Assembly (NCBI GenBank): GCA_964637695.1
Contig: CAZWVF010000001.1
Location: 7,445 to 71,444 of the forward strand
Source of the DNA: an uncultured Gemmatimonadota bacterium
GTDB lineage: Bacteria; Blakebacterota; Blakebacteria; Blakebacterales; Blakebacteraceae
DNA: 64,000 nucleotides
Reading direction: 5' to 3'
The position numbers and the translations under genes are program-made. The stretch's first letter is position 1. Every line of letters begins with the position of its first letter. Under the pieces are notes generated by a model, which saw nothing but the letters and a program-made list of their open reading frames with translations, was not told the origin of the DNA and ran no database searches. Of the stretch, positions 10,930 through 44,346 are shown piece after piece.

Positions 10930-11487
10930 CTACAGGTCATGGAGCTCTTTCCACGAGATCATGTGTTTGTTGCCCAGCTGTTCGCCGTGCCTGCTCCTGG
11001 CCCTTTCGGGGCCTTCTATCGGGAAATCCTTCCTCTGCGGGTGTCCCTCGTAGTCGCCGGGCATCAGTATGCGCTGCAGGTTGGGGTGACCGTCGAAGTG
11101 AATGCCCATCATGTCGAACACCTCCCGTTCGGCCCAGTCGGCCGCCGCGAATAGACCGGAAAGTGTTGGTACGGAACCTCCTTCGGGCACATACGCCTTC
11201 ACCCTGATGCGTCGCCCGCCGGAGAGATCGAGGAAGTGCCATATGACGGCGAACCGGTGCGGATGACTTTCGGTATGCTCCTGATAATCGACTGCGGTGA
11301 CATCGAGGAGTATGTCAATGCCCGCTTCCGATGACCCTTCCTTCAGAACTCCGGCAACATCGTTTATGGCGGCAGGATCGATCAGCAGAACCGGCATGTT
11401 GAAGGAATATGAAGATTCCACGAGCCTGTCACCTATGCGGAGACCGACCAGGTCCGCCAGAGCTTCGGACCACCTGGTATCAATCAC
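10930..11487 (-). CDS. nuoC: NADH-quinone oxidoreductase subunit C
   Basis: 185-aa ORF with the 30-kDa-subunit motif (EREVFDMMGIHFDGHPNLQRIL). Confidence 0.9.
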   Translation of the reverse strand: MIDTRWSEALADLVGLRIGDRLVESSYSFNMPVLLIDPAAINDVAGVLKEGSSEAGIDILLDVTAVDYQEHTESHPHRFAVIWHFLDLSGGRRIRVKAYVPEGGSVPTLSGLFAAADWAEREVFDMMGIHFDGHPNLQRILMPGDYEGHPQRKDFPIEGPERARSRHGEQLGNKHMISWKELHDL

Positions 11488-12066
11488 GTCGGGAGCTCTT
11501 TCCCGTTACCGTTCAGTTTGTCATTCAGTGATTTCTGCCACTGCGCATCAACAGCCTGCTGCACCCTGCGCCTGATATAGGCCCTGGCTTCGTGGGCCTG
11601 GCCCGGTTTCTCCTGGATCATTTCCTGCAGCAGGACGAGGCCGTGCAGAAGCAGTTCGGGGCGGGGGGGACATCCGGGCACGAAGACATCCACCGGTATG
11701 AATTCATCTACACCCTGACACACGCTGTATACGTCGAACATGCCTCCCGAAGAGGCGCAGGCGCCCATCGAGACGCACCACTTCGGTTCGGGCATCTGGT
11801 CCCAGACCTTCCTGAGAACAGGTCTGGATTTAAGACATACAGTTCCTATGACGATGAGAAGATCTGCCTGCCGGGGGCTGAACGCCTGTCTCTCCATTCC
11901 GAAGCGGGCAATATCGTACCTGGAGGCCATCGTCGACATGTACTCGATCCCGCAGCAGGCCGTGGCAAATGGTGTGGGCCAGAGGCTGTATTTGCGTCCC
12001 CAGGAGATTACATCCTTCATCTTCCCGGCTATCACGCTGTCGGAGAGCAGGGAGATCATTCCCATT
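11484..12066 (-). CDS. nuoB: NADH-quinone oxidoreductase subunit B
   Basis: NuoB 4Fe-4S motifs (CCGIE...GACASSGG...CPPRPE). The track ORF extends to 12284 and overlaps nuoA. The internal start MGMISLLSD at ~12066 fits operon spacing. Confidence 0.85.
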
Positions 12067-12412
12067 CGAGCCCGCCTTTCCGCCACACGTACGCCAGCCC
12101 GAGAGTCAGAATCGTCACGAATACAAGCATCTCCACCAGCCCGAAGAGACCCAGCCGGCGGAACAGAACCGCCCACGGAAAGAGGAATACCGCTTCGATA
12201 TCGAATATTATGAACACCAGGGCGACCAGGTAGAACCTGACCTGCATGCGGCGCTGCATGGCATCCCTGACGGGAACGCCGCATTCAAAGACATCGAGCA
12301 GGTGTTCCTGGGAAGATCGGGCGCCGAAAAGCCGGGGCATCATCAGCAGCAGGCCGCACAGGATCAGGCTGAAGAAGAGGAGGAGACCCAGGGCGAGAAA
12401 GTCATGGTTCAT
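12056..12412 (-). CDS. nuoA: NADH-quinone oxidoreductase subunit A
   Basis: Three-TM small protein with FDIEAVFLFPWAV. Likely start is MNHDFLAL at 12412; an alternative upstream ATG is at 12472. Confidence 0.8.
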   Translation of the reverse strand: MNHDFLALGLLLFFSLILCGLLLMMPRLFGARSSQEHLLDVFECGVPVRDAMQRRMQVRFYLVALVFIIFDIEAVFLFPWAVLFRRLGLFGLVEMLVFVTILTLGLAYVWRKGGLEWE

Positions 12413-12509: not shown

Positions 12510-12851
12510 CACGAACTATTAAATGATCGTTGTCCATTTTCTCAAGGATTATCTGCAATACCAACGCCACAGGACCGGTCTATTAGACATTTTTCTATAA
12601 GCAAATCAAAGCGACGGATCGTTTTGATTAACAGGTCGTGGAACACCGGTCGGAGATTTCAGGTATAGATGTATACAGGTGTTTTATGATTCAGGGCATT
12701 GGAGGTCGAAGGTTCGGGTCCTCCAGGGTGTCTAACTCATTGAGACACTTTGAAGAGTCTGTCGGATGCCGGCGCAAGCCGCAGCCGATGCGATTCTCCG
12801 GCAGACTCCTGAGTATCTGTTGATTGAATCCGACGAAAGGAAGTAACAGTC

Positions 12852-14510
12852 ATGCACCGATCCTCGATTTGCATACCGGCGGCCGGCAGAAAGCACTGCA
12901 CGATCCTCCTGCTGGCGGCGCTTTTCATCACGCCGGTCTATGCCCAGGTTGAGACTCCGCAGATTCAGGAGCCCGAACCGATCCAGGCGACGCAGATAGA
13001 AATGTTCACGCAGGAAGACGCCGAAATGGTCCTCAATCTTCAGCAGGTGATCGATCTGGCGCTCGACCAGTCGTTCCAGGTCTACCAGCTGAAGCAGAGT
13101 TATCTGCAGACCGCCTATTCACTGGAGCAGGCCAGGAGGAACCTGCGAACCAGGGTGGATCTGCAATCGACGATCCCCAGTATCCAACAGGGGCTGAATC
13201 CTACATTCTATTTCAATCCGGCCACTCAACAGCAGGAGCTGGCCTACCTGCGAACCGGGAGGACAAACTTCTATTCCAGGATCACGGTGCAGCAGCCGCT
13301 GATCACTAACGGATCGATATCGCTGGAATCCCGCCTCAGCGGTTTCGATTCCTTCAATGAGCGTGCTTCAGGTGATCCGGCCGAGACCCGTTCGATGTCA
13401 CCCACAATAGGGATCAATTTCAACCAGCCGCTCTTCCAGTACAACGACATCAAGAACGAGCTGAGGAACGCAGAGCTCAGTTTTGAATCCCTTGAGGCCA
13501 CTTATACCCAGGACGAGCTGAGCCAGATCAACGGGATCACCAACCAGTTCTACTCTCTCTTCAGGCAGCAGAAGTCGCTGGCCGACGTTGCGGAGTCATT
13601 CCGGTTGAGCGACATCAATTACCAGATCGGTCTGCGCAAGTACCAGGCGGGTCTGATAGCCGAGGTGGACAAGATGCGCCTGGAAGTGCAGAGGGCCAAC
13701 GACCTCGACCGGCTCGAAAACGCCAGGAACTCTCACGAACAGCAGCAGTTCCAGTTCAACCGCCAGGTGGGACTTCCCCTGGAGACGAAGATCTGGGTGG
13801 TTGCCAGCGAGGAGTACCGACCGATCGAGGTGGACGTCAACCGGGCGCTCGAACTGGCATTCGAGAACAGGGCGGAAATGAGACTTCAGGAGATCACCCT
13901 TGAGCAGTCTGACCTGAACCTGCGCCGCACGATCAGCATGGGTCGTCCAAACCTGCAGCTCAACCTGGGTTACGACCTGCAGGGCAACTCCACACTTGGC
14001 GGACTCAATGCCTCAAATTCCTGGTCGGATCACCTTTCCGAAGCCTTCAATCCCGACAACCAGAGCCCCAACACAAACGTCAGCCTCACGCTGCGGGTGC
14101 CGCTATTCGACTGGGGCCGCAACGAGGCGGCTGTACAGAGGCAGATGGCCGGCATCGCCGTGCAGGAACGAAGGTTGGAAGAGGTAGTGGAGAACCTGAA
14201 AAGAGATGTCATCAACCGCGTACGCTCTGTAGAGAGCGCCATGCGACGCATGGAGATCCAGACGGCCAACCGTGTAGTGGCCGAGAGAAGTTACGAGATC
14301 AGCCAGCTGCGCTACGAACGCGGTGAAACAACGATCATTGAGCTGCTCAACGACCAGCAGCAGTACAACAGCACGCAGGAGAACTTCCTGAGTGCGCTCA
14401 TCACGTTCGAGCAGGCCAAGGCGAGTTTAATGGAATACACGCTGTGGGACTGGGAGACCAACGAACCGGTCCGGCGGCGGACGTCGCCCCCGACGCCATT
14501 CGGCAAATAG
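12852..14510 (+). CDS. TolC-family outer membrane efflux protein (OMF 1)
   Basis: 552-aa ORF with a signal peptide. Long coiled-coil-rich sequence with the repeat structure typical of outer membrane factor proteins. First gene of an efflux operon. Confidence 0.82.
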   Translation: MHRSSICIPAAGRKHCTILLLAALFITPVYAQVETPQIQEPEPIQATQIEMFTQEDAEMVLNLQQVIDLALDQSFQVYQLKQSYLQTAYSLEQARRNLRTRVDLQSTIPSIQQGLNPTFYFNPATQQQELAYLRTGRTNFYSRITVQQPLITNGSISLESRLSGFDSFNERASGDPAETRSMSPTIGINFNQPLFQYNDIKNELRNAELSFESLEATYTQDELSQINGITNQFYSLFRQQKSLADVAESFRLSDINYQIGLRKYQAGLIAEVDKMRLEVQRANDLDRLENARNSHEQQQFQFNRQVGLPLETKIWVVASEEYRPIEVDVNRALELAFENRAEMRLQEITLEQSDLNLRRTISMGRPNLQLNLGYDLQGNSTLGGLNASNSWSDHLSEAFNPDNQSPNTNVSLTLRVPLFDWGRNEAAVQRQMAGIAVQERRLEEVVENLKRDVINRVRSVESAMRRMEIQTANRVVAERSYEISQLRYERGETTIIELLNDQQQYNSTQENFLSALITFEQAKASLMEYTLWDWETNEPVRRRTSPPTPFGK

Positions 14511-17711: not shown

Positions 17712-20700
17712 GTGCACATATCTGAACTATCGATCCGCCGGCCTGTCGCCACCGCCATGTTCTTCCTGGCAGTTGTACTGATAGGTGCGATCAGTTTCAG
17801 CCGTCTTGCCGTAGACCTCTTTCCCAGTCTCTCATTTCCACGACTGGTGGTCTGGACCACATACACCAACGTCTCTCCTGAAGAGGTGGAGCAGTTCATT
17901 TCGGAGAGGATAGAACAGAGCCTTCTGCGGGTTCCCGGCATTCGCGAGATCCACAGCGTCTCACGCGAAGGGGTCAGCCTGGTCACGGTCGAGTTCAACT
18001 GGGATGTGGACATGGAGTATGCGATGCTCAACGTCCGCGAGAAACTCGATATCCTGCGCAGTCAGCTGCCCGAACTGGCAGGTCGTCCCACCATCCTGAA
18101 AGCCGATCCGAACGCCGAACCGATAATGAGCCTTGCTGTATCGGGCAGGGGCGGTCTCCACGAGATCAAGGGCCTGGCCGACAACGTTGTGAAGCGGCGC
18201 CTCGAACAGATTGACGGGGTCGCCCTGGCTGCTGTCACCGGAGGGACCGAAAGGCAGATACGGGTCGAGGTGAACAGGGAGATAGTCGAGTCGCTGGGGA
18301 TCACCCTGCAGCAGGTCCAGAATGCCCTGGCCAACTCCAACATGATGTCCATGGGAGGCAACATCAACCGGGGCAGATTCCAGTGGTACCTGCGCCCGAT
18401 CGGGGATTTCCAGACCATCGAAGACATAGAGCAGGTTGTGGTGGTCAGCAGGGGTTCCCGGCTGGTGAAGATATCAGACATCGGCGAGGTCGTGGACGGC
18501 TTCAAGGAACGGGACAACCTGACCCGCTTCAACGGTTCGGAGAGCATCGGTATCCTGGTACAGAAGGAGGCCGGCAGCAATACCAGCCAGGTCTCTTCCA
18601 AGGTGCATGAAGTTCTGGATGAACTGGAAGTGGAATACACCGGACTCGACGTGGCGATAGCCTTCGACCAGGCCGAATTCGTAAACAACAGCATCGGCAA
18701 TGTGATCTGGGCGATCGCCCTCGGAGGCCTCTTCGCATTCCTGATGCTCTTCTTCTTCCTGCACGATATCAGGAATCCTCTGAACATCGGGCTGGCCATA
18801 CCAATTTCGATCATCGCCACATTCAGCCTCCTCTATTTCGCCGGTATCACTCTCAACATGATGAGTCTCGGCGGGCTGGCACTTGGTGTCGGTCTGCTGG
18901 TCGACAACTCCATCGTTGTGCTGGAGAACATCTTCAGGCACCGGGAGGAGGGTGAAGACCGCTTCGAAGGAGCGATAAATGGTGCGCGCGAGGTGGCGAT
19001 GGCCGTAACCGCCTCCACCTTTACGACCATCAGCGTCTTCCTGCCGATAATCTTCGTCCAGGGTGTCGCCGGGCAGCTCTTCCGCGACCAGGCTCTGACA
19101 GTGGCGTTCAGCCTTCTGGCTTCACTGATAGTATCGCTGACCATTCTGCCGATGATGGCCAGCCGGTTTCTGCACATGGAGTCGTTCATAAAGGAGAAGC
19201 TCGAAGCCGACAGGTCTGCCGGGAGAGATGCAACCGGGACGGCCGGAGGAGCTGCCGGCGTGATAGAAGAATTTACGCCGCCCGGGAAGCCTGCCGGATT
19301 CTTCAAGCGCATTCTTCTGGTCGTATCGTGGCCTTTCAGGAAGCTGTTTAAGCTTGTCAGGTGGGTGTTCCGACTGGCCGGCGGATTGATGAATGCAGCA
19401 GGCCGCATCCTGATGCTCGGTTTCTCTTCGGCGCTCCGGAATGTATCGCAGGCGGCCCGGAAAACGACGGCGCCTCTCTTCCGCGGTTTCGATCGCGCTT
19501 TCGAACGGTTCTCGAACATCTACCACAACGCACTCGAATGGTCGCTCGACCACCGCAGCAGGATCCTGGCCTTCTGCGGGGTGCTCATTCTGCTGGCACT
19601 GTGGATCGGGTACAGACTGGATAAGCGTCTGATACCGCAGGTAGATCAGGGGGAATTCAGCATCTCGATGGTGCTGCCGGCCGGTTCCAGCCTGGAGTCT
19701 ACATCCGAAGCGGCAGCCGTCATCGAAGGCTGGCTGCTCGAAATGGAAGAGGTACAGCACGTATTCATGAATGCGGGTTTGATCCGGAGTGAAAGCGCGC
19801 TGGGCAGCCAGGATTCAGACATAAACATGGCCACGCTCAGGGTGCGGCTGAAGCCGAAGGCAGAGCGCAACACATTCGAGATAGTATCCGAGCTGCGCCA
19901 GCGGGGTACTCAGCTCTATGGAGCCGAGCTGACCTTCAATACAGGGGAAACGACCTTTACAGAGATCCTGGGCACCAGCCAGGCCGATCTGGCGGTCAAG
20001 GTGCGCGGGCTCAACCTCGATGTCATGCAGAAGCTGGCAGACGGGGTTGAGGAAAAGCTGGGCGACGTGGAGGGCCTGCGGGATATCAATTCGGATTTCG
20101 CCATCGGCAAACCGGAGATCCGGCTCACGGTGGACCGGCGCGTCACCGAGCAGTACGGCCTTTCTGTCAGGGCGGTAGTGGATATGGTCTCCTCGACGAT
20201 AAAGGGGAACATCGCTACCGAGTTCCAGGACTTCGACAGGAAGGTTGAGGTTCTGGTCAGGGAGGGGGAGGCCGACCGGAAATCCCTTCAGCAGATCCTC
20301 TCTATGGGATTACCCCTTCCCACCGGCGGCGGGGATCGGATACCCCTGCGCGAGCTGGTGGACTGGCGCTACACCACCGGACCCAACGAGGTGAGAAGGG
20401 AAGCTCAGAACAGGCAGATCACGGTTTTTGCCAGCGTCGAGGGCCGCCGCCTCGATGACGCGATCGCCGAGGTGGAATCGCTGATGCTCGGCATGGCGGT
20501 ACCCGACGGTTATGAAATCGTGGTCGGGGGTGTGAACGAAGAGATGAGACGGTCGTTCAGGAGTCTTTTCTTCGCCCTCGGGCTGGCGATCCTGCTGGTC
20601 TACATGATCCTCGCTGCACAGTTCGAAAGCCTGATCCATCCCTTTACCATCATGTCAACCGTACCTCTGGCAGTGATTGGCGTGGTGCTCGCCCTGCAGA

Positions 20701-21119: not shown

Positions 21120-24100
21120 AAAGTTCAGTCCTGACAAATCAGTGCCTGCGCCGTCCGGTTACCACAGCGATGGTCTTTACGGTCCTGCTGGCCATAGGTG
21201 TGGCCAGTCTGATCCGGATACCCCTGGAGACCTACCCGGAGCTGGAGATACCCAGGATGACCGTAAGGGGAAGCTGGAGCGAAGCGAGCCCTGAAGCGGT
21301 CGAGGCCTTCATGACCTCACCTCTGGAAGCAGAGGCCAGCACCCTGGCAGGCATCAAGGAGGTAAAGAGCACTTCGAGCCGGGGCAATGCCAGGATCGAT
21401 CTGGAGTTCGCTCCCGATACAGATATGGACTTCGCCAGGCTCGAGCTGAACGAGAAGGTCTCCCGGCTCAGGGAATCACTTCCCCCCGGCGTCAATATCT
21501 CGATAAGCCAGTACGTACCGCCCGACATGCAGGAGGAGAACCTGCTGCAGTACACATTTACAGGGATGCAGAGCATCAACGAACTGCAGAAGTACGCCCA
21601 GGACCTGATCGAACGTCCGATGAGCGTGGTGAGCGGCGTGGCCGGCGTCTACATATCGGGTGGAGAGCAGAGGCAACTGAGGGTTGTCCTCGACAGGCAC
21701 AAGACGGAATCGCTCGGTATTGACCACATGGAGGTGGCCCGCAACCTCCAGCAGATAGCCAGCATCGTCGAAACGGTGGGCCTGATAAAGAAGGACACCT
21801 ACCAGTACAACCTGGTGGTCAGGGACGATTTCAATGATCTGAACACCCTGCGCAACGCCATCGTGGCCAGAAGGAGCGATCGTTTCATCCGGCTCGGTGA
21901 GATAGCACGTGCAGTGGATGGATACTCAGAGCCCAGAGGTTACCAGCGGCTGAACGGCCGGGCGAGGGTGGCGATCTTCATCAGTGCGGTGGCGGGCAGC
22001 AACATCATAGATGTAGCCCGGAGGGCGAAGGCGCGGATGGAAGAGATCCGCGAGACCCTGCCGGCGGGAACGCAGCTGATCGAGGAGAGAGACAACAGCG
22101 AAACGATCAGGAACGAGCTGGATGGACTCGAATTCCGCAGCGTACTGATCATATTCCTGATCTTCATCGTACTGCTCGTCTTCCTGCGCGGCATAGCCAA
22201 TCCGCTGATAATTCTCTCCAGCATCGCTACCAGCGTGCTGTTGACGATCTCCCTCTTTTACTTCACGGGCGCATCTCTGAATATGATGACCCTGGCGGGG
22301 CTGGCACTGGGATTCGGGATGATGGTCGACAACTCGATAGTGGTGCTCGACAACATCCACCGGCACAGGGAGCGGGGCAGCGGCAGGCTGGCGGCGGCCA
22401 GCATAGGCACTTCGAGGGTGATGATGCCGATCCTGGCCGGGACGGCTACAACCATCATCGTTTTCCTGCCCTTCCTCTACCTGCAGGGTGAGCTGAGGGT
22501 CGTTTACATGCCCTTTGCCCTGGCGGTGGTAACGAGCCTGGCGTGCTCTCTGGTGGTTTCCTTCACGCTGATACCCAGCCTGGCTGCACGCGTGCTGGGA
22601 ACGCCGGCCGCCCAGGCCGGAGCTGGGGGTGCCCGGTTCGACCCGGGATCAGGCAACAACCAGGTCAAAGAGGATCCGTGGAAGCTGGGAGAGCTGGAGA
22701 TCGAGGAGGAGGCCGGGATCGTTCACGGCATGGATAAGGGAGCAGAGCATACTCTCAAGATAGGGGACAACATTTACCAGAGGGTTCTCCGTTTTATGCT
22801 GACCCACAAGATCATAGTCATACTCATCGTCCTGCCTGTCTTTGCCGGCTCATATCACGTTTTCGATACGAAGGTGACCAAGGGGCGCATCTGGCGGGCG
22901 TATGGACCCAGTCGGGAATACCTCAACGTCAGCATGAGAGCCCCAACCGGGTCAGATCTGGATGTGATGGAGGATCTGGTCAACAAATTCGAAGCGAAGC
23001 TGCTGCCGATTTACGAGTCGGGCCAGATAGAAGACTTCGAGACGAACATTACATCCCGCTATGCCGGCATCAGGATCAGCTTCCCCGAGGATGTGATCAG
23101 GGGGGGGATTCCCTATCTGGTCAAGGATCAGCTTTCGGTGTTCGCAGGCCTGCTGGCCGGCGGTATGAATATCAGCGTCACCGGATTCGGCGACTACTTT
23201 TCGGCGGGCAGCTTTGGGAGTTCATCGTACAGCTCGAGAATCAAGTTCCTTGGTTACAACTACCTGAGGGTGAAGGAGCTGGCGGAGGAGCTGGCGGAGC
23301 GGCTGAAGCGCAACCCCAGGATCCGCGAGGTGGACACAAATTACGGATCGTTTTCGCGCGGTGCCGAAAAGCAGATAGTGCTCCGGTTCGACCGTGAGGC
23401 GCTGGCTGCCCACGGGCTGACCGCCAGGGATATGATCTACTTCGTCGGCCGCTACGTCAGGACGACATCGGGTGGAAGGGTCACCTACGGAGGGGAGGAG
23501 ATCGATTTCCAGGTTAAGGTGGATGGCTATGACGATCGCGACATCATTGAACTGATGAACGCAACAGTAACTACACGCAACCGTGGCAAGGCACGGATGC
23601 GCGATCTGGGCGAAATGACCATCGAGCCGGTCATGGGTACGATCCAGAGGCAGGACCAGCAGTACACGCGTACCGTAGGGTATGAATTCCGCGGTCCATA
23701 CAAGATGGGTGAAAGGGTTCGCGAACAGATCATGGATTCCACGATCCTGCCCAATGGCTACGAGTTCGATGAGAGCGAACGGATCTGGCAGACCGAGGAG
23801 GAGAAGCAGCAGCTCCTGCTGGTGCTCGGCTTTGCCCTTCTGCTTGTCTACATGCTGACCGCCGCACTCTTCGAGTCCTTCTTCCACCCCTTCACGATCA
23901 TCCTGACCGTTCCACTTGCGATGATCGGCGTATTCCTCGGCTACTGGTTCTTCAGCAAGGGATTCGACAGGTCGGCCTACGTCGGAGTAATCCTGATGGG
24001 GGGGATCGTGGTCAACAACTCGATCATCCTGGTCGACCATATAAACTCCCTGCGCCGCTTCCTGCCGCGTCGCGACGCGGTGGTGCGGGCAGCCAGAGAG

Positions 24101-33610: not shown

Positions 33611-33728
33611 GGCGGTGCCGTACCTTTCAGTATCCCCGATTGAAAACTCTCAGTGCCCTGTCACGCAACAACCGTGGCATTCGAGCGGCGCCGAATCCCG
33701 ACCGGCTGCGTTCCGCCTCCTCGCCCAA

Positions 33729-33907
33729 GGAGCCTGCCGGAGAAACGCTCCGGCTGCGGATTGCGCTGGCATCCGGCTGGCGGCGTTGGTTTTCACAGAA
33801 GGTCCTCGACGTAGCACAGCGGCTACGTCTCCGGGTCTTCCGCTCAACCGCCTGGCCATCCTGCACCAGCGCAACCCTCGCTATCGTCGGATTCTCCGGC
33901 AGGCTCC
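33729..33907 (+). repeat. Structured ~180-bp intergenic repeat element, copy 1
   Basis: ~80% identical to 38146-38324. It has a 16-bp terminal inverted repeat (GGAGCCTGCCGGAGAA / TTCTCCGGCAGGCTCC), inner helices TTGCGCTGG/CCAGCGCAA and GAAGGTCC/GGGTCTTC, and an apical hairpin GACGTAGC-ACAGCG-GCTACGTC. Noncoding. Confidence 0.7.
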
Positions 33908-33992
33908 TGGACACCGCTATGCCTCGTCGCCGCGCCTTGCAGGCCGGACCCGGCATCACTCTCGGTGCCGACATTTGTCACGTGACATGACA

Positions 33993-34865
33993 CTAACGGA
34001 TCTTTCTCAGAAGTTCGCCGGCTTCTTCCTTGTACCGGGCATCTTCAAAGAATACGGCCGGCAGACGACCAACAGCCTCGAATTCCTGGCGGGCCATGCT
34101 GTCCTGGTCCATCTCCAGGTAGGTTTTACCCAGCTCGAGGTGATGGTTGATGTTGTCCGGCTCAACCTGGAGTGCCCGCAGAAAGAGGCTTACCGATTCT
34201 GTATTGGATGCAGGAGGCAGTCCGCCGAAAATGATCTTCGCAACAGCTTTGAGGGCCCAGGAGAGGTTGGCTACCTCCCTGTGCCAGCGGGCCAGCCCAT
34301 GCAGGGAACCGGGATGCCGGGGATCGATCGAGAGTGACTTTTCAAAGACCTCCTTGATCTCCTTCGACATGTTCACCTTCTTCTTGCCGCCGCGATGCAG
34401 TGCGAGCCTGCCGAGGGCCTGCCCGAGCTGGAAATGGCCCTCTGCATCTGCAGGATTGGCTGCGACGGCCCGACGTGCGAAGGCGACCGCCTCTTCGTAC
34501 ATCGGTTCCTGCTCCTTTTTATCCAGGCTGCGGGCGCGCCCTGTAATGTTATCCGACATGAGACAGAGCAGAACGTAATTATCGGGATCGGCGTTGAGAG
34601 CGGGTCTGATAAGGTCAACCGCCGCAGCATACTCTCCGGCTATGTTGAGTTCATCAACGCGGGCCTGCAGTTGAGAAATGTCCTGCTGGGCACTGGCCGG
34701 AACAGGTGCAAGGATGAGCACCGCAAATGAGAATGCCAGGACATATTCTGCACTTTTATACAAACGAAAACTGGACAAGTGCGTCTTCTCCTTTAGAAGG
34801 GGATTGGTGTCAGGGGTTGTGTGGATGGTAAGCGCCCGGAGCGATTCTGGCAAGCACCTGCTCAT
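33993..34865 (-). CDS. TPR-repeat protein with signal peptide (hypothetical)
   Basis: 290-aa ORF with a hydrophobic signal segment (VLAFSFAVLILAPVPASAQQ) followed by tetratricopeptide-like helical repeats. The true start is possibly a TTG downstream of the annotated ATG. Confidence 0.5.
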   Translation of the reverse strand: MSRCLPESLRALTIHTTPDTNPLLKEKTHLSSFRLYKSAEYVLAFSFAVLILAPVPASAQQDISQLQARVDELNIAGEYAAAVDLIRPALNADPDNYVLLCLMSDNITGRARSLDKKEQEPMYEEAVAFARRAVAANPADAEGHFQLGQALGRLALHRGGKKKVNMSKEIKEVFEKSLSIDPRHPGSLHGLARWHREVANLSWALKAVAKIIFGGLPPASNTESVSLFLRALQVEPDNINHHLELGKTYLEMDQDSMARQEFEAVGRLPAVFFEDARYKEEAGELLRKIR

Positions 34866-37361: not shown

Positions 37362-38138
37362 ATGACAGAACAGGAAGAGACCGGATCGATTGAATCCCCC
37401 GTGCCCGAAGAATCTGGAGCCGGAATCGCAGAATCGGTCAGTTTCGTTCAGCAGGTTATCCTCGTTTTCACGGATCCTGCGAGCGTGTTTGAAAAGCTGG
37501 TGGCACATCCCAGGTGGATCGGGGCATTTCTGCTTGTGATGGTTGTTTCGATAGCCGGAACGCAGGCCTCCTATCCATTGATGATGGATATGCAGAGGAA
37601 GATGGCTGAGCGGAACATCGAGAACCGGCAGCTCACTCCTGAGCAGGAAGAGATGGCTTTGCAGCGGTTCTCACGGGCCGCAACGCCTGCGACACGCATC
37701 GTAACGGTGGTCTTCCAGGCATTAGGTCAGCTGATCTGGCTCGTTATAATGGCCGGCATCCTGATGTTCGGCGGGAATATCCTCCTGGGTGGAGAGTCGA
37801 CCTTCAAGACTGTGATGGCGATTGCGGCGTACTCGTGGCTTGTGCTGATCCCCAAGGTTCTGCTCACCGTGCCGTTGATGCTCGCCAAGGGGAGTGCGGC
37901 CGTCTCCACCAGCCTTCAGATACTGATACCCTCAGACCGGTGGATGACACCACTGGGCGCAGCCCTGGGTGCAGTTGACCTTTTCTCAATCTGGATGATC
38001 GCTCTCGTTATAACGGGCATCTCGATCGCCTACAGGTTCAGCCGGGCCAGAGCTGCAATACTGGTGATCAGCCTCTACCTGCTGATGGTGCTCGTCGGTA
38101 TCGGGCTGATGGCCGTTTTCGGCAGCATGATGGTATAA
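37362..38138 (+). CDS. Yip1-domain integral membrane protein
   Basis: 258-aa ORF with a hydrophilic N-terminus followed by five TM helices, consistent with the Yip1-family fold. Confidence 0.55.
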   Translation: MTEQEETGSIESPVPEESGAGIAESVSFVQQVILVFTDPASVFEKLVAHPRWIGAFLLVMVVSIAGTQASYPLMMDMQRKMAERNIENRQLTPEQEEMALQRFSRAATPATRIVTVVFQALGQLIWLVIMAGILMFGGNILLGGESTFKTVMAIAAYSWLVLIPKVLLTVPLMLAKGSAAVSTSLQILIPSDRWMTPLGAALGAVDLFSIWMIALVITGISIAYRFSRARAAILVISLYLLMVLVGIGLMAVFGSMMV

Positions 38139-38145
38139 GCACATA

Positions 38146-38324
38146 TGAGCCTGTCCGAGAAACACTCCGGCTGCGGCCTACGCTGGCATCCAGCTGGCGG
38201 CGTTGGTCTTCGCAGAATATCCTCGACGTAGCGCAGTGGCTACGTCTCCGGGTATTCCGCTCGACCGCCTTGCCATCCGGCGCCGGCGTAATCCTCGCTA
38301 TCGTTGGTTTCTCGGACAGGCTCA
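38146..38324 (+). repeat. Structured ~180-bp intergenic repeat element, copy 2
   Basis: 18-bp perfect terminal inverted repeat (TGAGCCTGTCCGAGAAAC / GTTTCTCGGACAGGCTCA). Inner helices TACGCTGG/CCGGCGTA and GAATATCC/GGGTATTC, and an apical hairpin GACGTAGC-GCAGTG-GCTACGTC. It starts 7 nt after the yip1 stop and ends 41 nt before the TolC-like gene start. Confidence 0.7.
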
Positions 38325-38365
38325 TACTGCAGAAAGAGGAAAATAAAATCTTCAGGAGCAACAAA

Positions 38366-39703
38366 ATGGCACAATACAGGTACCGGTTTCCGCTCGCTCT
38401 TCTAACGGTGATCGTTCTGGTCGCCGGTTCAGAACCTGTGTCCGCCCAGCAGCCCCTCAACCTCGATTCGTGCATTGTGGAGGCGCTGGCACATAATCCG
38501 CAGATCGGCAGGGCCCGGCAGCAGGTGAAACTGAGCGAACTGCAGAGGCGTCAGGCCTCCAGTGCACTTCTGCCGTCGCTTTCCCTCACCGGCGCCTTCT
38601 CCAGGTATACCAGCGTATCGCCCCAGAGGCTCCTCAATCCAGCGACGAACCAGATCGTGGAGGGAAGCTCGACCGCCCTGACCACGATGACATACTATTC
38701 GGGCCTCAATCTCTCACAGTCCCTTTACAACAGGTCGACAACGGCTCTTTACACCCAGGCGAGGGCAGGGGAGCAGACCGCCATTGCAGAGGCCGAAATG
38801 CAGAGCCAGCTGGTGGTGCTGCAGGTCTACCAGGCCTACTACTTCCTGCTGCGCGCCCAGCGGAACCTGGAAGTGGCCGAGACGGACACAGGCTACAACA
38901 CAGAACTGCTGCGGCAGGTGAAGACGATGTTCGAGATGGGCAACAGGGCGAAGGTGGATGTCCTACGTCAGGAAAGTGCCCTGGCACAGTCGCAGCAGCG
39001 CCTGATCTCGGCAGGGAACAGCGTCAAGAAGGCCAGGGCCGAGCTGAATTTCCAGATGGGTGCGGATCCGACGCGTCCCCTGGAGATAGTTGACGACCTG
39101 GAGCTGGTACCGCAGGAGGTTTCATTCGAAGCCTCTCTCGAGCAGGCAATGGTGTCGCACCCCGTTATCCGGCAGGCGTCGCTGAGGATCACGGCAGCCG
39201 AAGCCGGAGTCAATGCGGTCGCCGCCTCCCGCTACCCTTCCATGAATCTTTCGGGGAACTATTCGTGGCGGGGAGACTCATATCTCGACATTACCGACGC
39301 CTTCTCCAGCGACTACACATGGAGTGTCGGTGTCGGATTGTATCTGAACATTTTCGACGGTATGCGCACCGGGCTCAACCTGCAGAAAGCGCAGGTAAAC
39401 CTTGCGGGAGCCGAGAGGGACAGGTTCGATGCCGAACGGAATGTCATACGTGATGTTCACGGTGCGGTTCTGGATCTGCAGGAGGCCGAGCAGGTCCTTA
39501 AGACCGCCCGGCGAGCCGTAGATCTGGCCAATGAGGCTCTTCGGCTGGCCGAGGAAATGTTCCGGATCGGTTCGATGACACTGCTGGAAGTTAATGCCAG
39601 CCAGTTCGACCTGATAAATGCGCAGTATCAGGAGGTGCAGGCTCTGTTTAACTTGAAGATAGCCCGGGCCAGTCTCGATTATTCGATGGGCCTCCTTCGT
39701 TGA
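38366..39703 (+). CDS. TolC-family outer membrane efflux protein (OMF 3)
   Basis: ~445-aa protein with a signal peptide (MAQYRYRFPLALLTVIVLVAGSEPVSAQQ) and the TolC repeat architecture. The track ORF starts at 38270 inside the repeat element. An ATG at 38366 is preceded by AGGAG. Confidence 0.82.
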   Translation: MAQYRYRFPLALLTVIVLVAGSEPVSAQQPLNLDSCIVEALAHNPQIGRARQQVKLSELQRRQASSALLPSLSLTGAFSRYTSVSPQRLLNPATNQIVEGSSTALTTMTYYSGLNLSQSLYNRSTTALYTQARAGEQTAIAEAEMQSQLVVLQVYQAYYFLLRAQRNLEVAETDTGYNTELLRQVKTMFEMGNRAKVDVLRQESALAQSQQRLISAGNSVKKARAELNFQMGADPTRPLEIVDDLELVPQEVSFEASLEQAMVSHPVIRQASLRITAAEAGVNAVAASRYPSMNLSGNYSWRGDSYLDITDAFSSDYTWSVGVGLYLNIFDGMRTGLNLQKAQVNLAGAERDRFDAERNVIRDVHGAVLDLQEAEQVLKTARRAVDLANEALRLAEEMFRIGSMTLLEVNASQFDLINAQYQEVQALFNLKIARASLDYSMGLLR

Positions 39704-39809: not shown

Positions 39810-41075
39810 GTGAAAAAACGACTTTTCATAATCGGTGGAATCATAATTGTTCTGCTCATGATAGTGGGAAATCTGCTCAATACGGGTGGCGGTGGTGTGG
39901 ATGTGATGGCAGAGGATGTAGGCAGGGGAACCGTTGTAAGCAGGGTGTCGGCCGCCGGACGGATATATCCGGTCATTGAGGTGAAGATAAACAGCCAGGT
40001 CAGCGCCCGCATTGAAAGGCTGGCCGTAAGAGAGGGGCAGCAGGTCGAGCGGGGAGATATTCTGGTGGTTCTCGACAGGACCCTCTACCAGGCAAGGCTG
40101 GAGGGGGCTGAAGCCTTTCTGAACAGTCAGAAAGCAAACGCGGAAGCCGCACTTGCCACCCTGCGCCAGGCCGAATATCTGCTGAACGAGCAGAAGGCAC
40201 TGGCCGAACAGAACCTCACATCAGAGAAGCTGCTGCGTGACGCTCAGAACGGTTACGACGCGGCGAAAGCCCGATACAACGCCTCGCTGGCCCAGGTCTC
40301 CTCCGCCCAGGCCACCCTTGAACAGGCGCAGGAAGACCTTTCCCGTACGACCATCAGGGCCCCGATGTCCGGCACCATAACCGCACTGGGTGTAGAAGAG
40401 GGGGAGATGGTGCTGGGCACCCAGATGACGATGGGTACCCAGATCATGGCCGTTTCCGATCTGAGCCGTATGGAAGTGGAAGTTGATGTGGATGAAACCG
40501 ATGTGGTTGCTGTAGCGGTAAATCAGGATGCAGAGGTTGACGTGGATGCGCTTCCAGACACGATACTGGCCGGCAGGGTTACCGAAATCGCCAATTCTGG
40601 CACAACACTCGGTGCCGGCACGCAGATGGAGGTGACCAACTTCGCGGTAAAAGTGGAACTGATCGACTCCGATCCCCGCCTGCGGCCGGGAATGTCCGCC
40701 ACGGTCGACGTCACAACGGAGACCAGAAACGACGTCCTCAAAATCCCGATTCAGGCGCTGACGGCCCGACGGTATAAGGACCTGGTGGTGTCTAACGAGC
40801 AGGAGGGGGAGGGAAGTGGACAGCAGGAACGCTCAGATGAGGAGGACGAATACGTAGAAGTCGTATTCGTCATACTGGAGGATAACACGGTTGAACTGAG
40901 GCGGGTGGAGTCCGGGATATCCGGAACCACCTATATCGAGATTCTCTCGGGCCTCGATGAGGACGAGAAAGTGGTGACCGGTCCCTTCCGTCTTCTGAGC
41001 AGAACGCTGAAGGATGGGGAGAGGGTAAAGGTTGTAGAAACATTGCTGGGTGAGGAGAATACGGGCAGAGAGTAG
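39810..41075 (+). CDS. HlyD/MacA-family periplasmic adaptor subunit
   Basis: 421-aa ORF with an N-terminal TM helix, a long coiled coil and a lipoyl motif ([16 protein letters not shown]). Confidence 0.8.
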
Positions 41076-41098
41076 TCGGCCTGAAGACCGGAGACGAT

Positions 41099-41845
41099 AT
41101 GATACGGCAGGGAGAACAGGCAGAAATGGCAACACCGATAATTCAACTGCAGGGGATCACCAAAGAATATAAAATGGGCACGCAGATCGTGCGTGCTCTT
41201 CGCGGTGTGGATCTGGATATATACAAGAATGAATACCTGGCGATCATGGGACCATCGGGATCGGGTAAATCTACCCTGATGAATCTTATCGGCTGTCTCG
41301 ATACGCCGACGGCCGGAACATACCATTTCGAAGGCGAGAAGGTCGAATCCATGACCGACGACGAGCTGGCAGAGATCCGCAACCAGAAGATCGGTTTCGT
41401 CTTCCAGACCTTCAACCTTCTGTCACGGGCTGACGCTCTTCACAATGTGGAACTGCCTCTGATCTACAGCGGTACGCCGGCAGGTGAACGGCGCAGGCGG
41501 GCCCTGCAAACCCTGGAAGACGTGGGCCTGGGTGACCGGGTCGATCACCGGCCGAACGAGCTTTCGGGCGGTCAGCGCCAGCGCGTGGCTATCGCGAGGG
41601 CGCTGATAAACAATCCATCAATCATCCTTGCCGACGAACCTACCGGTAACCTTGACACGACAACCGGCGAAGAGATCATGTCCGTACTCGAAGGGTTGTA
41701 TGAAAAGGGCAATTCGATCATCCTGGTTACCCACGAAGAGTATATTGCCGAGCATGCGACGCGGATCGTCAGGATTCTCGACGGCCTGATCGGATCGGAT
41801 GAACATGTAACGAGGCGCCGGAAGTCGAATTCGGTTCCGGCATAA
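41099..41845 (+). CDS. ABC transporter ATP-binding protein (MacB/LolD-type)
   Basis: Walker [13 protein letters not shown] signature LSGGQRQR, Walker [12 protein letters not shown]. Confidence 0.88.
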
Positions 41846-41871
41846 CTGCTGACGAGACGGCGGCCATGTAG

Positions 41872-43107
41872 ATGAATACTCTCAGATTCCTGGTTGAACT
41901 TCGTGAGAGTATCCTGGCCGCATTCCGCGCGCTGCGGGCGAATCTGCTCAGGTCGGTTCTCACAACGCTCGGTATAGTAGTCGGGGTTACAGCTGTGATC
42001 TCGATAATCAGCCTCATTCAGGGGCTCGACAGAACCTTCCGTGCCGAAGTGGCCAGCCTGGGGACCAATGTCGTCTACGTGAACAAGTACTCGTGGATCA
42101 ACATGGGGGATTTCTGGAAGTACAGGAACAGGAAGAACATCACCCTCAAACAGGCGGCCGCACTCGTCGAACAGGTCACCCTGCCGGTTGCTGCTTCCAA
42201 TTCTGTGAGCACCTCTTCCAATGTGAGATGGCAGGGGCGGACCGCCGGCGGCGTTTCGATCGAGGGACACACTCCCGACGGCAGGATAGTGCACGGGCTC
42301 GACCCCGAAAGAGGCAGGTTCTTTACAGATGTGGAAGCGAACGAACGCCGCCAGGTAGCCGTGCTGGGACACGGTCTCTGGTCGGACCTCTTTGAAGAAC
42401 GTGATGCTCTCGGAGAGAGGGTGCGAATTGGTGGTCACGCCTTCACCGTAATAGGGATAATGCCCGAACAGGGCAGCATCCTCGGAATGAGCCAGGATAA
42501 CCGGGTTATAGTACCACTCGAAACTGTGCTCAAGCTCTTTGGAACGCGCCGTTCCATCGGTATCGCCCTGCTGGCACCCAACGCCGAATCGATCCCCCTG
42601 ATAGAGGAAGAGGCACAGGGTATCATGCGGCGTATCCGCCAGATCCCGCCCGGCGAGGAGGACGATTTCGAATTCAACCGCCAGCAGATGCTTGTCGATC
42701 TCTTCCGCAGTCTGACGGCGGGTCTCTTTGCTGTGATGGTGGGCGTGGCTTCACTCTCGCTGCTGGTGGGTGGAATCGGGATCATGAACATCATGCTGGT
42801 GTCGGTTACGGAGCGCACAAGGGAGATCGGCGTGCGCAAGAGCGTGGGGGCAAAGCGTCGCGACATCATGTGGCAGTTCCTGGTCGAATCGATCGTTGTG
42901 AGCGGAGTGGGCGGTGTGATCGGGATGATTGCCGGCATCGGGATAGCCTTCGTTATCGCCGCGGCGACACCCCTTCCTGCAGCTGCCCCCATCTGGGCGA
43001 TCCTGCTCGGCCTCTCATTCAGTACATCAGTAGGGCTCTTCTTCGGAATCTACCCGGCGGCCAAGGCGGCAGGACTCGATCCGATCGTAGCCCTCAGGTA
43101 TGAATAG
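41872..43107 (+). CDS. ABC transporter permease, MacB-periplasmic-domain + FtsX family (paralog 1)
   Basis: 411-aa ORF with an N-terminal TM helix, a large periplasmic domain and a C-terminal FtsX 3-TM domain (IGIMNIMLVSVTERTREIGVRKSVGA). Confidence 0.85.
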   Translation: MNTLRFLVELRESILAAFRALRANLLRSVLTTLGIVVGVTAVISIISLIQGLDRTFRAEVASLGTNVVYVNKYSWINMGDFWKYRNRKNITLKQAAALVEQVTLPVAASNSVSTSSNVRWQGRTAGGVSIEGHTPDGRIVHGLDPERGRFFTDVEANERRQVAVLGHGLWSDLFEERDALGERVRIGGHAFTVIGIMPEQGSILGMSQDNRVIVPLETVLKLFGTRRSIGIALLAPNAESIPLIEEEAQGIMRRIRQIPPGEEDDFEFNRQQMLVDLFRSLTAGLFAVMVGVASLSLLVGGIGIMNIMLVSVTERTREIGVRKSVGAKRRDIMWQFLVESIVVSGVGGVIGMIAGIGIAFVIAAATPLPAAAPIWAILLGLSFSTSVGLFFGIYPAAKAAGLDPIVALRYE

Positions 43108-43116
43108 GGTAGGCAC

Positions 43117-44346
43117 GTGCCGATAGGGATAAGGGAGACAGGACGACTGGCGGCCACCTCGCTGATTGCAAACCCTCTCAGGACTCTGCTGACCAGCCTG
43201 GGTATAATCATCGGTGTGCTGGCCGTTGTGGGCATGAGCAGCCTGATAGAAGGATTGAACCAGTACGTCACAACCGAACTGAGCCAGGTCGGAAGCGACA
43301 CATTCTACATACAATCAAGGCCCAGCATAGAGATCCAGGTGGGGGGACACAGCAACAGGCAGGACTGGGAAGACCTGACAATCGAAGACAAGAGGGCCCT
43401 GGAAGACAACGCTCCATCGATACTCTTCGTATCAGCCTACTCCACCCACTTCGGTGTGGAGATCCGCTACGGCGGTGAAAAGACCAATCCCAATGTGTTG
43501 CTCTACGGCGCCGACCAGTACCTGCCCAGACTGCAGGGGCTCGACCTGGATGCGGGACGGTTCCTGGCCCCGATAGATGACACCAACCGCAGGAATGTGG
43601 CGATCCTCGGAGTCGACGTGGTGGAGACGCTCTTCCCCAATATCGATCCGCTGGGCAGGGAGATCCGGATAGACAGTCACCGCTACCGGGTGATCGGCAT
43701 ACTGGAACGTCAGGGAGAATTCCTGGGATTCAGCCAGGACAACCTGGTCATCATTCCCGTCTCCTCCTTCAGAAAGTACTGGGGCCGCCGCAGTGAGATA
43801 CAGATGGCCGTCATGGCCCGCACGGGTCGTATGCAGGAGGCGATAGACGAATCGATCGTGGTGCTGAGGCTCCGGAGGGAAGTACCGCCCGGTGAACCGA
43901 ACAATTTCGAGATAATGACGGCAGACGCGATCCAGAAGACCATGGACACGCTGATAATCGGCATAAGCCTTGTGATGGTGGGTATTGCCAGCATCAGCCT
44001 TCTGGTCGGCGGTATCGGCATCATGAATATCATGCTGGTCTCTGTTACGGAACGGACGCGTGAGATCGGGATCCGCAAGGCAACAGGGGCCAGAAGGGGC
44101 GATATCACAAGGCAGTTTCTGGTGGAAGCGATTGTGCTGAGCGGGGTCGGGGGAACTGTTGGTACTCTGCTTGGCGTCGGAATGGGTCTGCTGACAGGTG
44201 CCGTTACGCCGCTTCCGGCTGCGGTTCCCGTCTGGGCGCTTCTGGCGGCTATCCTCGTGTGCGGCGGCATCGGCGTTGGATTTGGAGTATATCCGGCCAT
44301 GAGGGCTGCAAGGCTCGATCCGGTCGAAGCACTGCGTTACGAGTAA
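43117..44346 (+). CDS. ABC transporter permease, MacB-periplasmic-domain + FtsX family (paralog 2)
   Basis: 409-aa paralog of the preceding gene with the same motif (IGIMNIMLVSVTERTREIGIRKATGA). Confidence 0.85.
   Translation: MPIGIRETGRLAATSLIANPLRTLLTSLGIIIGVLAVVGMSSLIEGLNQYVTTELSQVGSDTFYIQSRPSIEIQVGGHSNRQDWEDLTIEDKRALEDNAPSILFVSAYSTHFGVEIRYGGEKTNPNVLLYGADQYLPRLQGLDLDAGRFLAPIDDTNRRNVAILGVDVVETLFPNIDPLGREIRIDSHRYRVIGILERQGEFLGFSQDNLVIIPVSSFRKYWGRRSEIQMAVMARTGRMQEAIDESIVVLRLRREVPPGEPNNFEIMTADAIQKTMDTLIIGISLVMVGIASISLLVGGIGIMNIMLVSVTERTREIGIRKATGARRGDITRQFLVEAIVLSGVGGTVGTLLGVGMGLLTGAVTPLPAAVPVWALLAAILVCGGIGVGFGVYPAMRAARLDPVEALRYE

Follow-up and report, generated by a model that had tools for sequence, protein, structure and literature searches.

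A probable small mobile repeat in the spacer between yip1 and a TolC-MacAB-type exporter operon

The short spacer between yip1 and a TolC-MacAB-type exporter operon contains a long palindromic sequence, raising the question of whether this is a dedicated regulator of the operon or a repeat that happened to land there. Within the window, the whole 64-kb stretch of DNA that was analysed, Pfam matches identify the upstream gene as yip1, coding for a Yip1-domain membrane protein (37362-38138, + strand; stop codon TAA at 38136-38138), and the first gene 3' of the element as that of an OEP/TolC-family outer-membrane factor (38366-39703, + strand, with an in-frame ATG at 38366). The remainder of the exporter operon (39810-44346, + strand) encodes a HlyD-type adaptor, an ABC ATPase (ABC_tran) and two MacB_PCD+FtsX permeases, while ExbB and TonB are matched further upstream and the ExbD-ExbD identity is taken from precomputed Pfam matches alone. 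These matches bear out the gene names, yip1 and TolC-MacA-ABC-FtsX-FtsX, that had been given in a sequence-only reading of this DNA. That reading had also placed the element within 1-2 nt of the borders reported here, 7 nt after the yip1 stop codon and 41 nt before the TolC-like start, spacings which agree with TAA 38136-38138 and ATG 38366, and had claimed that no intrinsic terminator separates the two genes; a scan of the + strand of the spacer (38138-38366) likewise found no terminator-like site. The evidence set out below indicates that the element is very probably a copy of a small non-coding mobile repeat (MITE) of uncultured sediment bacteria which arrived by insertion, rather than a dedicated regulator of the operon.

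The palindrome, which is almost perfect, spans positions 38145-38325 and its 177-bp core, GAGCC...GGCTC (GAGCCTGTCC...GGACAGGCTC), is located at 38147-38323 on the + strand (hereafter copy 2). This copy is bounded by perfect terminal inverted repeats of 17-20 bp, the left one (GAGCCTGTCCGAGAAAC, 38147-38163, + strand) showing no mismatches to the right arm (38307-38323, - strand; GTTTCTCGGACAGGCTC when read on the + strand), and the sequence of one outer arm, ATGAGCCTGTCCGAGAAAC, is the exact reverse complement of the other, GTTTCTCGGACAGGCTCAT. Chance alone would give 0.03 matches to the 19-nt terminal arm in the window, where three are found. As RNA, copy 2 is predicted to fold at -102.2 kcal/mol, compared to a mean of -65.4 kcal/mol for shuffled sequences (z -8.35; none of 200 shuffles as stable), and the hairpin is retained when folded with 301 nt of context, leaving the AGGAG ribosome-binding site outside it. 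The complementary strand folds at least as well (-107.1 kcal/mol) and the element also folds well as single-stranded DNA (z -7.2). The stable structure proposed in the sequence-only reading was thus recovered, but not its multi-helix character, as the fold is one long, interrupted and unbranched hairpin of ~68 pairs in four coaxial helices. Its basal helix is a perfect 20 bp and its apex an 8-bp hairpin (GACGTAGC-GCAGTG-GCTACGTC, 38225-38246, + strand), which is the same in every retrieved copy but also served as the search key. The sequence following the element, ATACTGCAGAAAG, has no U-tract, and the element is therefore not a canonical attenuator or intrinsic terminator.

Homologues of the window Yip1 protein (79-82% identity) are encoded on three metagenome contigs (L078, L079 and L081), in the same gene order as in the window, ExbD-ExbD-TonB-Yip1-OEP(-HlyD-ABC). 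The Yip1-OEP spacers of these contigs measure 73-85 nt and contain no counterpart of copy 2, compared to 227 nt in the window. The DNA alignment of the orthologs with the window (83-90% identity) ends at 38146, breaking after GCACATA, and restarts at 38330, with the orthologs reading ...GCACATATCATC... where the window reads GCACATAT-(element)-ATACTGCAG. The leader of the OEP gene, comprising the 38 nt before its start and including the AGGAG ribosome-binding site (38328-38365, + strand), is conserved in all four sequences. The locus thus shows an insertion polymorphism, occupied in the window and empty in the three relatives, and since the orthologous spacers are empty the element is an insertion in the window lineage. 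Copy 2 is flanked on the left by ATAT (38143-38146), a putative 4-bp target-site duplication, and on the right by ATAC (38324-38327), an imperfect second copy with three of four bases matching, while the orthologous empty sites read GCACATATCAT; as the spacer has also diverged through small indels, the length of the duplication is not readable from the empty site. This transposon-like nature, apparent in the terminal inverted repeats, the target-site duplications and the empty sites, had been missed in the sequence-only reading. The spacers of L079 (3823-3907) and L081 (2768-2852) further contain a tandem duplication of a ~30-nt unit (TTGGATAAGCACATATCATCYGRATTTCAG) that takes in the last bases of yip1, and the window spacer (38139-38365) retains one shortened unit, interrupted by the element.

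Three copies of the element occur in the window. Copy 1 (33730-33906, + strand; flanks CAAG and CTGG), which forms a palindrome at 33728-33908, has a 177-bp core 86% identical to that of copy 2 and the same orientation. It lies between the start of a minus-strand gene of 267 aa and the stop of a minus-strand TPR gene; the earlier placement between two minus-strand genes, one of them ending in a TPR stop, is upheld, while the label of outer-membrane protein (OMP) is not, there being no Pfam match for the 267-aa gene. Overlooked at that stage were a third copy of 54 nt (12755-12808, - strand), internally deleted with both termini kept and situated 43 nt upstream of an OEP gene, and the nesting of copy 1 in a second repeat family. 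The 54-nt copy sits in a 567-nt divergent spacer between an Oxidored_q6 gene (11484-12284, - strand) and the OEP/TolC-family gene (12852-14510, + strand). The second family is a MITE-like repeat of ~160 nt, TGCCCTGTCACG...CGTGACATGACA, which is also mostly flanked by CTAG and whose termini have an xxxCCTGTC motif in common with the first family. In the window it is split by copy 1 into two halves (33654-33725 and 33911-33992, both - strand), the flank CTA at 33993-33995 being the TAG stop codon of the minus-strand TPR gene. The second family is also found in L041 (770-921), L028, L033, L005, L076, L067 and L036, and the composite of copy 1 within it recurs in L060, L066 and L013, with the reverse nesting in L041.

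Further copies were gathered by an exact scan for the 21-base apical core TCGACGTAGCNNNNNNGCTACGTCTCC. Matches were obtained at 12 loci in two metagenome-assembled genomes from cold seeps, labelled Gemmatimonadota and Zixiibacteriota and both derived from the CSMAG catalogue (PMC10491686), and on 62 further metagenome contigs, giving 74 contigs in total, with all related sequences being metagenomic short-read contigs. The census is accordingly biased towards copies with an intact apical core, which bears equally on the apical invariance and the taxonomic range; no full copy with a variant apical core was found in ~600 kb of flanking DNA. A profile search of all the fetched DNA with nhmmer yielded 44 full-length hits, representing 37 distinct insertion sites. 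From GAGCC to GGCTC the core measures 177 bp in all full-length copies except that in L062 (176 bp), the copies are 87-99% identical to their consensus, and the absence of a conserved ORF from the core marks the element as non-coding. The terminal inverted repeats of 17-20 bp begin with GAGCCTGTC. The major terminal type reads (CT)AG-GAGCCTGTCGGAGAAAC...GTTTCTCCGACAGGCTC-CT(AG), while diverged types, among them window copy 2, have GTCTGAAAAAC or GTCCGAGAAAC arms. Deletion derivatives of 21, 27, 30, 54-55, 64 and 90 nt have kept both termini and lost the interior.

No Rfam family matched anywhere in the window at the gathering score, and at E values up to 10 the region of the element gave only two weak snoRNA matches, both outside the element. 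Searches with blastn (11-base words) against plasmids, 5,426 complete E. coli genomes and phages returned no match, an exact scan of IMG/VR with the 25-nt terminal arm gave none, and a literature search on the terminal sequence GAGCCTGTC found nothing relevant. MITEs are usually smaller than ~200-400 bp. By definition they lack a transposase gene, are bounded by terminal inverted repeats and target duplications, and can form a long RNA stem-loop (PMC3184786); the present element matches this description, with target duplications that are clear in the diverged copies. With no sequence relative in Rfam, E. coli, plasmids, phages or IMG/VR, it thus represents a new family within a known class of elements. 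Neither the ~600 kb of fetched loci nor IMG/VR yielded an autonomous partner sharing its termini, and an all-against-all search for repeated blocks of >400 bp recovered the orthologous yip1 region alone. Pairs of terminal repeats on three contigs were considered as autonomous elements and rejected on account of the genes they enclose: RmuC-like, aminotransferase and epimerase housekeeping genes in L038 (4839 and 8595), citrate synthase in L012 and a probable oriC-dnaN-recF region in L057. An integron attC site was also discarded, as the attC consensus is RYYYAAC/GTTRRRY, which the terminal cores GAGAAAC/GTTTCTC do not fit, and the copies do not occur in cassette arrays.

Among the known systems, the Correia elements (CREE/NEMIS, ~100-160 bp) are likewise non-coding MITEs with terminal inverted repeats and internally deleted size variants, and occur as many intergenic copies, including between promoters or genes and downstream operons. 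The two share no sequence similarity, and the Correia core is not palindromic throughout, whereas the element pairs along its whole 177 bp. Correia elements also duplicate TA, in contrast to the 4-bp duplications of the diverged copies and the predominance of CTAG as flank in the element, and they carry outward promoters and an IHF site. Their transcribed inverted repeats form hairpins in Neisseria mRNAs that are bound by RNase III and cleaved or protected, including one copy upstream of the mtrCDE efflux operon, where it separates the operon from the promoter (PMC2649163). ERIC (IRU, ~127 bp) resembles the element as an imperfect palindrome of the MITE class found in transcribed intergenic regions in either orientation (PMC3184786); it differs in length, host phyla and termini, and the element had no match in the 5,426 E. 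coli genomes. The analogy with REP and ERIC elements drawn in the sequence-only reading was close in kind.

A transposase supplied in trans probably mobilises the element by way of a short staggered cut. In the window lineage it landed ~5 nt past the yip1 stop codon, in a small intergenic gap ahead of the conserved leader of the TolC-MacAB-type exporter operon. That the yip1 and tolC genes are co-transcribed may be inferred from the shortness of the element-free spacer, the conserved synteny and the absence of a terminator. Were the two genes co-transcribed, their mRNA would carry a ~68-pair hairpin without a U-tract, a plausible substrate for RNase III by analogy with the Correia elements, and the likeliest consequence would be processing by a double-strand-specific (RNase III-type) enzyme or an altered stability of the upstream and downstream mRNA segments. 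The sequence-only reading had proposed that the element could serve as an attenuator, as an RNase processing or stabilising site or as a cis-regulator of the efflux genes. That the element measurably affects the expression of tolC or yip1 is possible, if somewhat doubtful. Any effect on the efflux operon is argued to be a by-product of the insertion and not a designed function, and would provide a parallel to the Correia-mtrCDE case.

Conservation of the 68-pair hairpin was assessed over 35 copies, in which 95.5% of the cells are standard pairs. Two-sided changes occur at 11 pairs, compared to 4.1 ± 1.3 in shuffles (none of 500 reaching 11) and 1-4 in slid controls. Seven of these pairs are located in the terminal helix, two of them (columns 1-2 with 180-181) consisting of flank bases, and the strongest, pair 12/170, lies inside the terminal repeat (GC in 24, UA in six and CG in two copies); in the interior helices there are just 1-2 two-sided cells per pair. 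Symmetric change of both terminal repeats is expected of a transposase-binding site and thus does not argue for a selected RNA structure, the binding of a transposase being what would explain the covariation in the terminal repeats. G-T cells outnumber A-C cells (175 vs 57), while the separate events are approximately equal (17 vs 21 pairs), and the excess reflects a few fixed pairs and a structure derived from the + strand, giving no clear sign of strand-specific selection on RNA. The opposite orientation folds ~7 kcal/mol better in 32 of 34 copies; this is no clear sign of RNA selection either, as it tracks shared subfamily substitutions and shows no correlation with gene direction.

These observations bear on the alternative that survives best, namely that the MITE, in this copy or as a family, has been exapted and its hairpin is now kept as an intra-operon processing or stability site which sets the yip1:tolC expression ratio. 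Such a role would accord with the tolerance of copies in very short same-strand spacers, the strictly constant length with 95.5% of cells paired and the Correia/mtrCDE precedent, but is rather unlikely, given that the two-sided changes fall mostly in the terminal helix, for which transposase binding is explanation enough, and are few in the interior helices, that no orientation bias is seen and G-U events do not consistently exceed A-C events on one strand, and that close relatives function without the element. More generally, it is unlikely that the palindrome is maintained by something beyond inheritance from a master copy, although the constant 177 bp, the symmetric two-sided changes and the mirrored flanks described below are compatible with this. 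A hairpin-dependent transposition step, involving a folded single-strand intermediate and an uncharacterised enzyme, would fit, as would exaptation within operons such as yip1-tolC-macAB as an RNase III-type processing site, or co-evolution with a genome purged of CTAG to 4% of expectation.

The sites of insertion bear on how the MITE may have moved. The four bases abutting the element at 108 unique termini are most frequently CTAG (37), followed by CCAG (11), ATAG (six), TTAG (six) and TCAG (five), with CAAG also represented; the compositional bias is confined to positions -4 to -1, with none beyond -4. In the 14 full copies with termini other than AG/CT, the direct 4-nt flanks match at 40 of 56 positions, compared to 20.7 in shuffled pairings (p ~1e-4). 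Five of these diverged copies show perfect 4-bp direct repeats (TAAT, ATGT, ATGA, ATAT and CCAG), none of which reaches a fifth base, and the flanks of the diverged copies are a 4-bp target-site duplication. Among copies of the major type, eight have CTAG on both sides, where, CTAG being palindromic, a duplication and an extension of the inverted repeat are indistinguishable. The remaining copies of this type have unequal, mirrored flanks, NNAG on the left and CTNN on the right (e.g., TCAG/CTGA and CTGG/CCAG). These may derive from a 2-bp TA duplication within a CTAG target, from template-switch symmetrisation of the palindrome, from chimeric short-read joins through near-identical copies or from nesting in other repeats, and the 4-bp duplication and the boundary are provisional in the major subfamily, where either 2 or 4 bp may fit the mirrored flanks. 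IS630 generates a 2-bp TA duplication. A simple TA duplication of the IS630/mariner type was rejected for the family as a whole: it fits 14 of 24 major-subfamily copies and fails in the diverged ones, where the duplicated bases would be TG, CA or AA and the 4-bp identity would be left to coincidence.

IS5 duplicates Py-T-A-Pu, most often CTAG (PMC5493358), and the element resembles it in the 4-bp duplications of its diverged copies and in having CTAG as its commonest flank; it is on this likeness that an IS5-group-like transposase acting in trans is proposed, with a target that would be centred on TA and strongly prefer CTAG. The terminal repeat sequence differs from that of IS5, a plain 4-bp duplication does not account for the mirrored flanks of the major subfamily, and the diverged copies use ATGT, ATGA, TAAT and ATAT instead of Py-T-A-Pu. 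CTAG is itself the rarest tetranucleotide in the 64-kb window, with nine occurrences compared to 241 expected from base composition (ratio 0.037), followed by CTAA and TTAG, which are Py-T-A-Pu targets found flanking the repeats; none of the nine CTAG sites in the window adjoins a repeat copy.

The same flanks allow a different mode of transposition to be weighed, in which the element would be a REP/BIME-like or IS200/IS605-derived palindrome, and a tyrosine HUH transposase (RAYT/TnpA) would recognise the hairpin together with the adjacent tetranucleotide, here CTAG, and move the element in single-stranded form. REP units, which measure 20-40 nt and are linked to RAYT genes, contain an unpaired tetranucleotide that is conserved. 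They resemble the element as G+C-rich extragenic palindromes able to affect mRNA stability, but a REP unit is a small stem loop (PMC3184786), whereas the element is 177 bp long with equivalent inverted ends and direct 4-bp duplications, and target duplications are absent from REP elements. An unpaired tetranucleotide is also found in SMAG units (PMC3184786). The G+C-rich, intergenic, whole-length palindrome, the conserved tetranucleotide abutting the stem, the mirrored flank variants and the preservation of symmetry by two-sided changes (11 pairs vs 4.1 in shuffles) are all in keeping with HUH transposition. This is nonetheless improbable, as non-palindromic direct 4-bp duplications such as those of the diverged copies are not produced by HUH transposition, the ends are equivalent inverted repeats and not distinct left and right subterminal hairpins, and a non-exhaustive look saw no RAYT or TnpA gene adjoining any copy.

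With respect to gene context, almost every copy is intergenic and fits tightly between ORFs, the distance on each side frequently being -2 to 40 nt. Relative to tandem genes, the element has the same orientation in eight cases and the opposite one in 11-12. A stop codon is located within 9 nt in approximately 11 of 35 copies, and in six copies the CTAG flank includes the TAG stop codon of the neighbouring gene. TAG stops coinciding with a CTAG or CTAA flank are found at window positions 33993-33995 and in L068, L016, L059, L032, L057 and L049. This coincidence of stop codons with the repeat flanks suggests that the elements tend to insert exactly at gene ends, the duplication preserving the stop codon. 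The occurrence of many copies in very short same-strand spacers further suggests that the element is not strongly polar and does not strongly block read-through.

The location of copy 2 directly upstream of the OEP gene with no terminator between them, the high stability of its fold and the position of the 54-nt copy, likewise upstream of an OEP gene, could be taken to indicate an RNA dedicated to the cis-regulation of the TolC-MacAB exporter operon, such as a riboswitch, attenuator or leader. A link to efflux genes, prompted by the two OEP neighbours (38366 and 12852), was dropped once the 20 genes directly 3' of other copies were considered. These are functionally unrelated, including genes for gamma-glutamyltranspeptidase, ribonucleotide reductase, SmpB, trigger factor, citrate synthase, IspH, glutamate dehydrogenase and a sulfatase, and the two OEP neighbours in the window are thus best read as a coincidence. 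A dedicated regulatory RNA is highly improbable, in that three orthologous yip1-OEP spacers have the same leader and ribosome-binding site without the element, the 37 other sites adjoin unrelated genes, copies point either way relative to transcription, the two strands fold equally well, and there is neither a U-tract nor an Rfam match. The 37 dispersed sites, the lack of an orientation bias and the empty orthologous spacers point instead to a dispersed repeat. The sequence-only reading had leaned the same way, favouring a dispersed structured repeat over a dedicated riboswitch and regarding the element as not tied to one coding context; both views gain from the 37 sites in unrelated contexts, the first also from the empty spacers and the lack of an Rfam match.

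Numerous matches to the apical core are located at contig ends and many contigs are broken inside the element, the pattern that a repeat interrupting short-read assembly would give. That the yip1-tolC position is an assembly artefact or chimeric join, as might be imagined of an element which often ends contigs and is longer than typical assembly k-mers and reads, is a negligible prospect, since NCBI VAPB, NCBI VAPA and Logan SRR6439359, which are independent assemblies, have the identical yip1-element junction, and one of them (L001) continues through the entire element and on into tolC. Near-identical copies (97-99%) are carried by contigs L004-L015 of two bins, CSMAG_1426 (labelled Gemmatimonadota) and CSMAG_1180 (labelled Zixiibacteriota), and most of these contigs are short and end in the repeat. 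For this occurrence in two phyla, mis-binning of repeat-ended contigs is as likely an explanation as transfer between phyla. In data sets from cold seeps and sediments, the family is likely to fragment assemblies and to cause contigs to be mis-binned.

For annotation, copy 2, copy 1 and the 54-nt copy at 12755-12808 should be recorded as repeat or mobile elements and not as regulatory RNA. They add a MITE family, along with a related second family, from uncultured Zixibacteria/Gemmatimonadota-like bacteria, with insertions at or beside stop codons in a genome almost devoid of the preferred CTAG target. In L057 (3520-3880), a copy directly adjoins a highly AT-rich region containing TTATCCACA-type boxes, which looks like a chromosomal replication origin, the genes just downstream being dnaN and recF as read by eye from the translation. 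In L012 (3373-5174), a citrate synthase gene lies between a full-length copy and a short form of 55 nt, the two being inverted with respect to each other, in a layout that resembles a composite transposon. Both other long direct-repeat pairs in the window look like paralogous coding segments rather than repeat elements: one (42732-42914 and 43971-44153) falls within the two adjacent MacB_PCD+FtsX permease genes, which have the same Pfam domains, and the other (18827-18952 and 22252-22377) within two adjacent ORFs of ~1,100 aa each.
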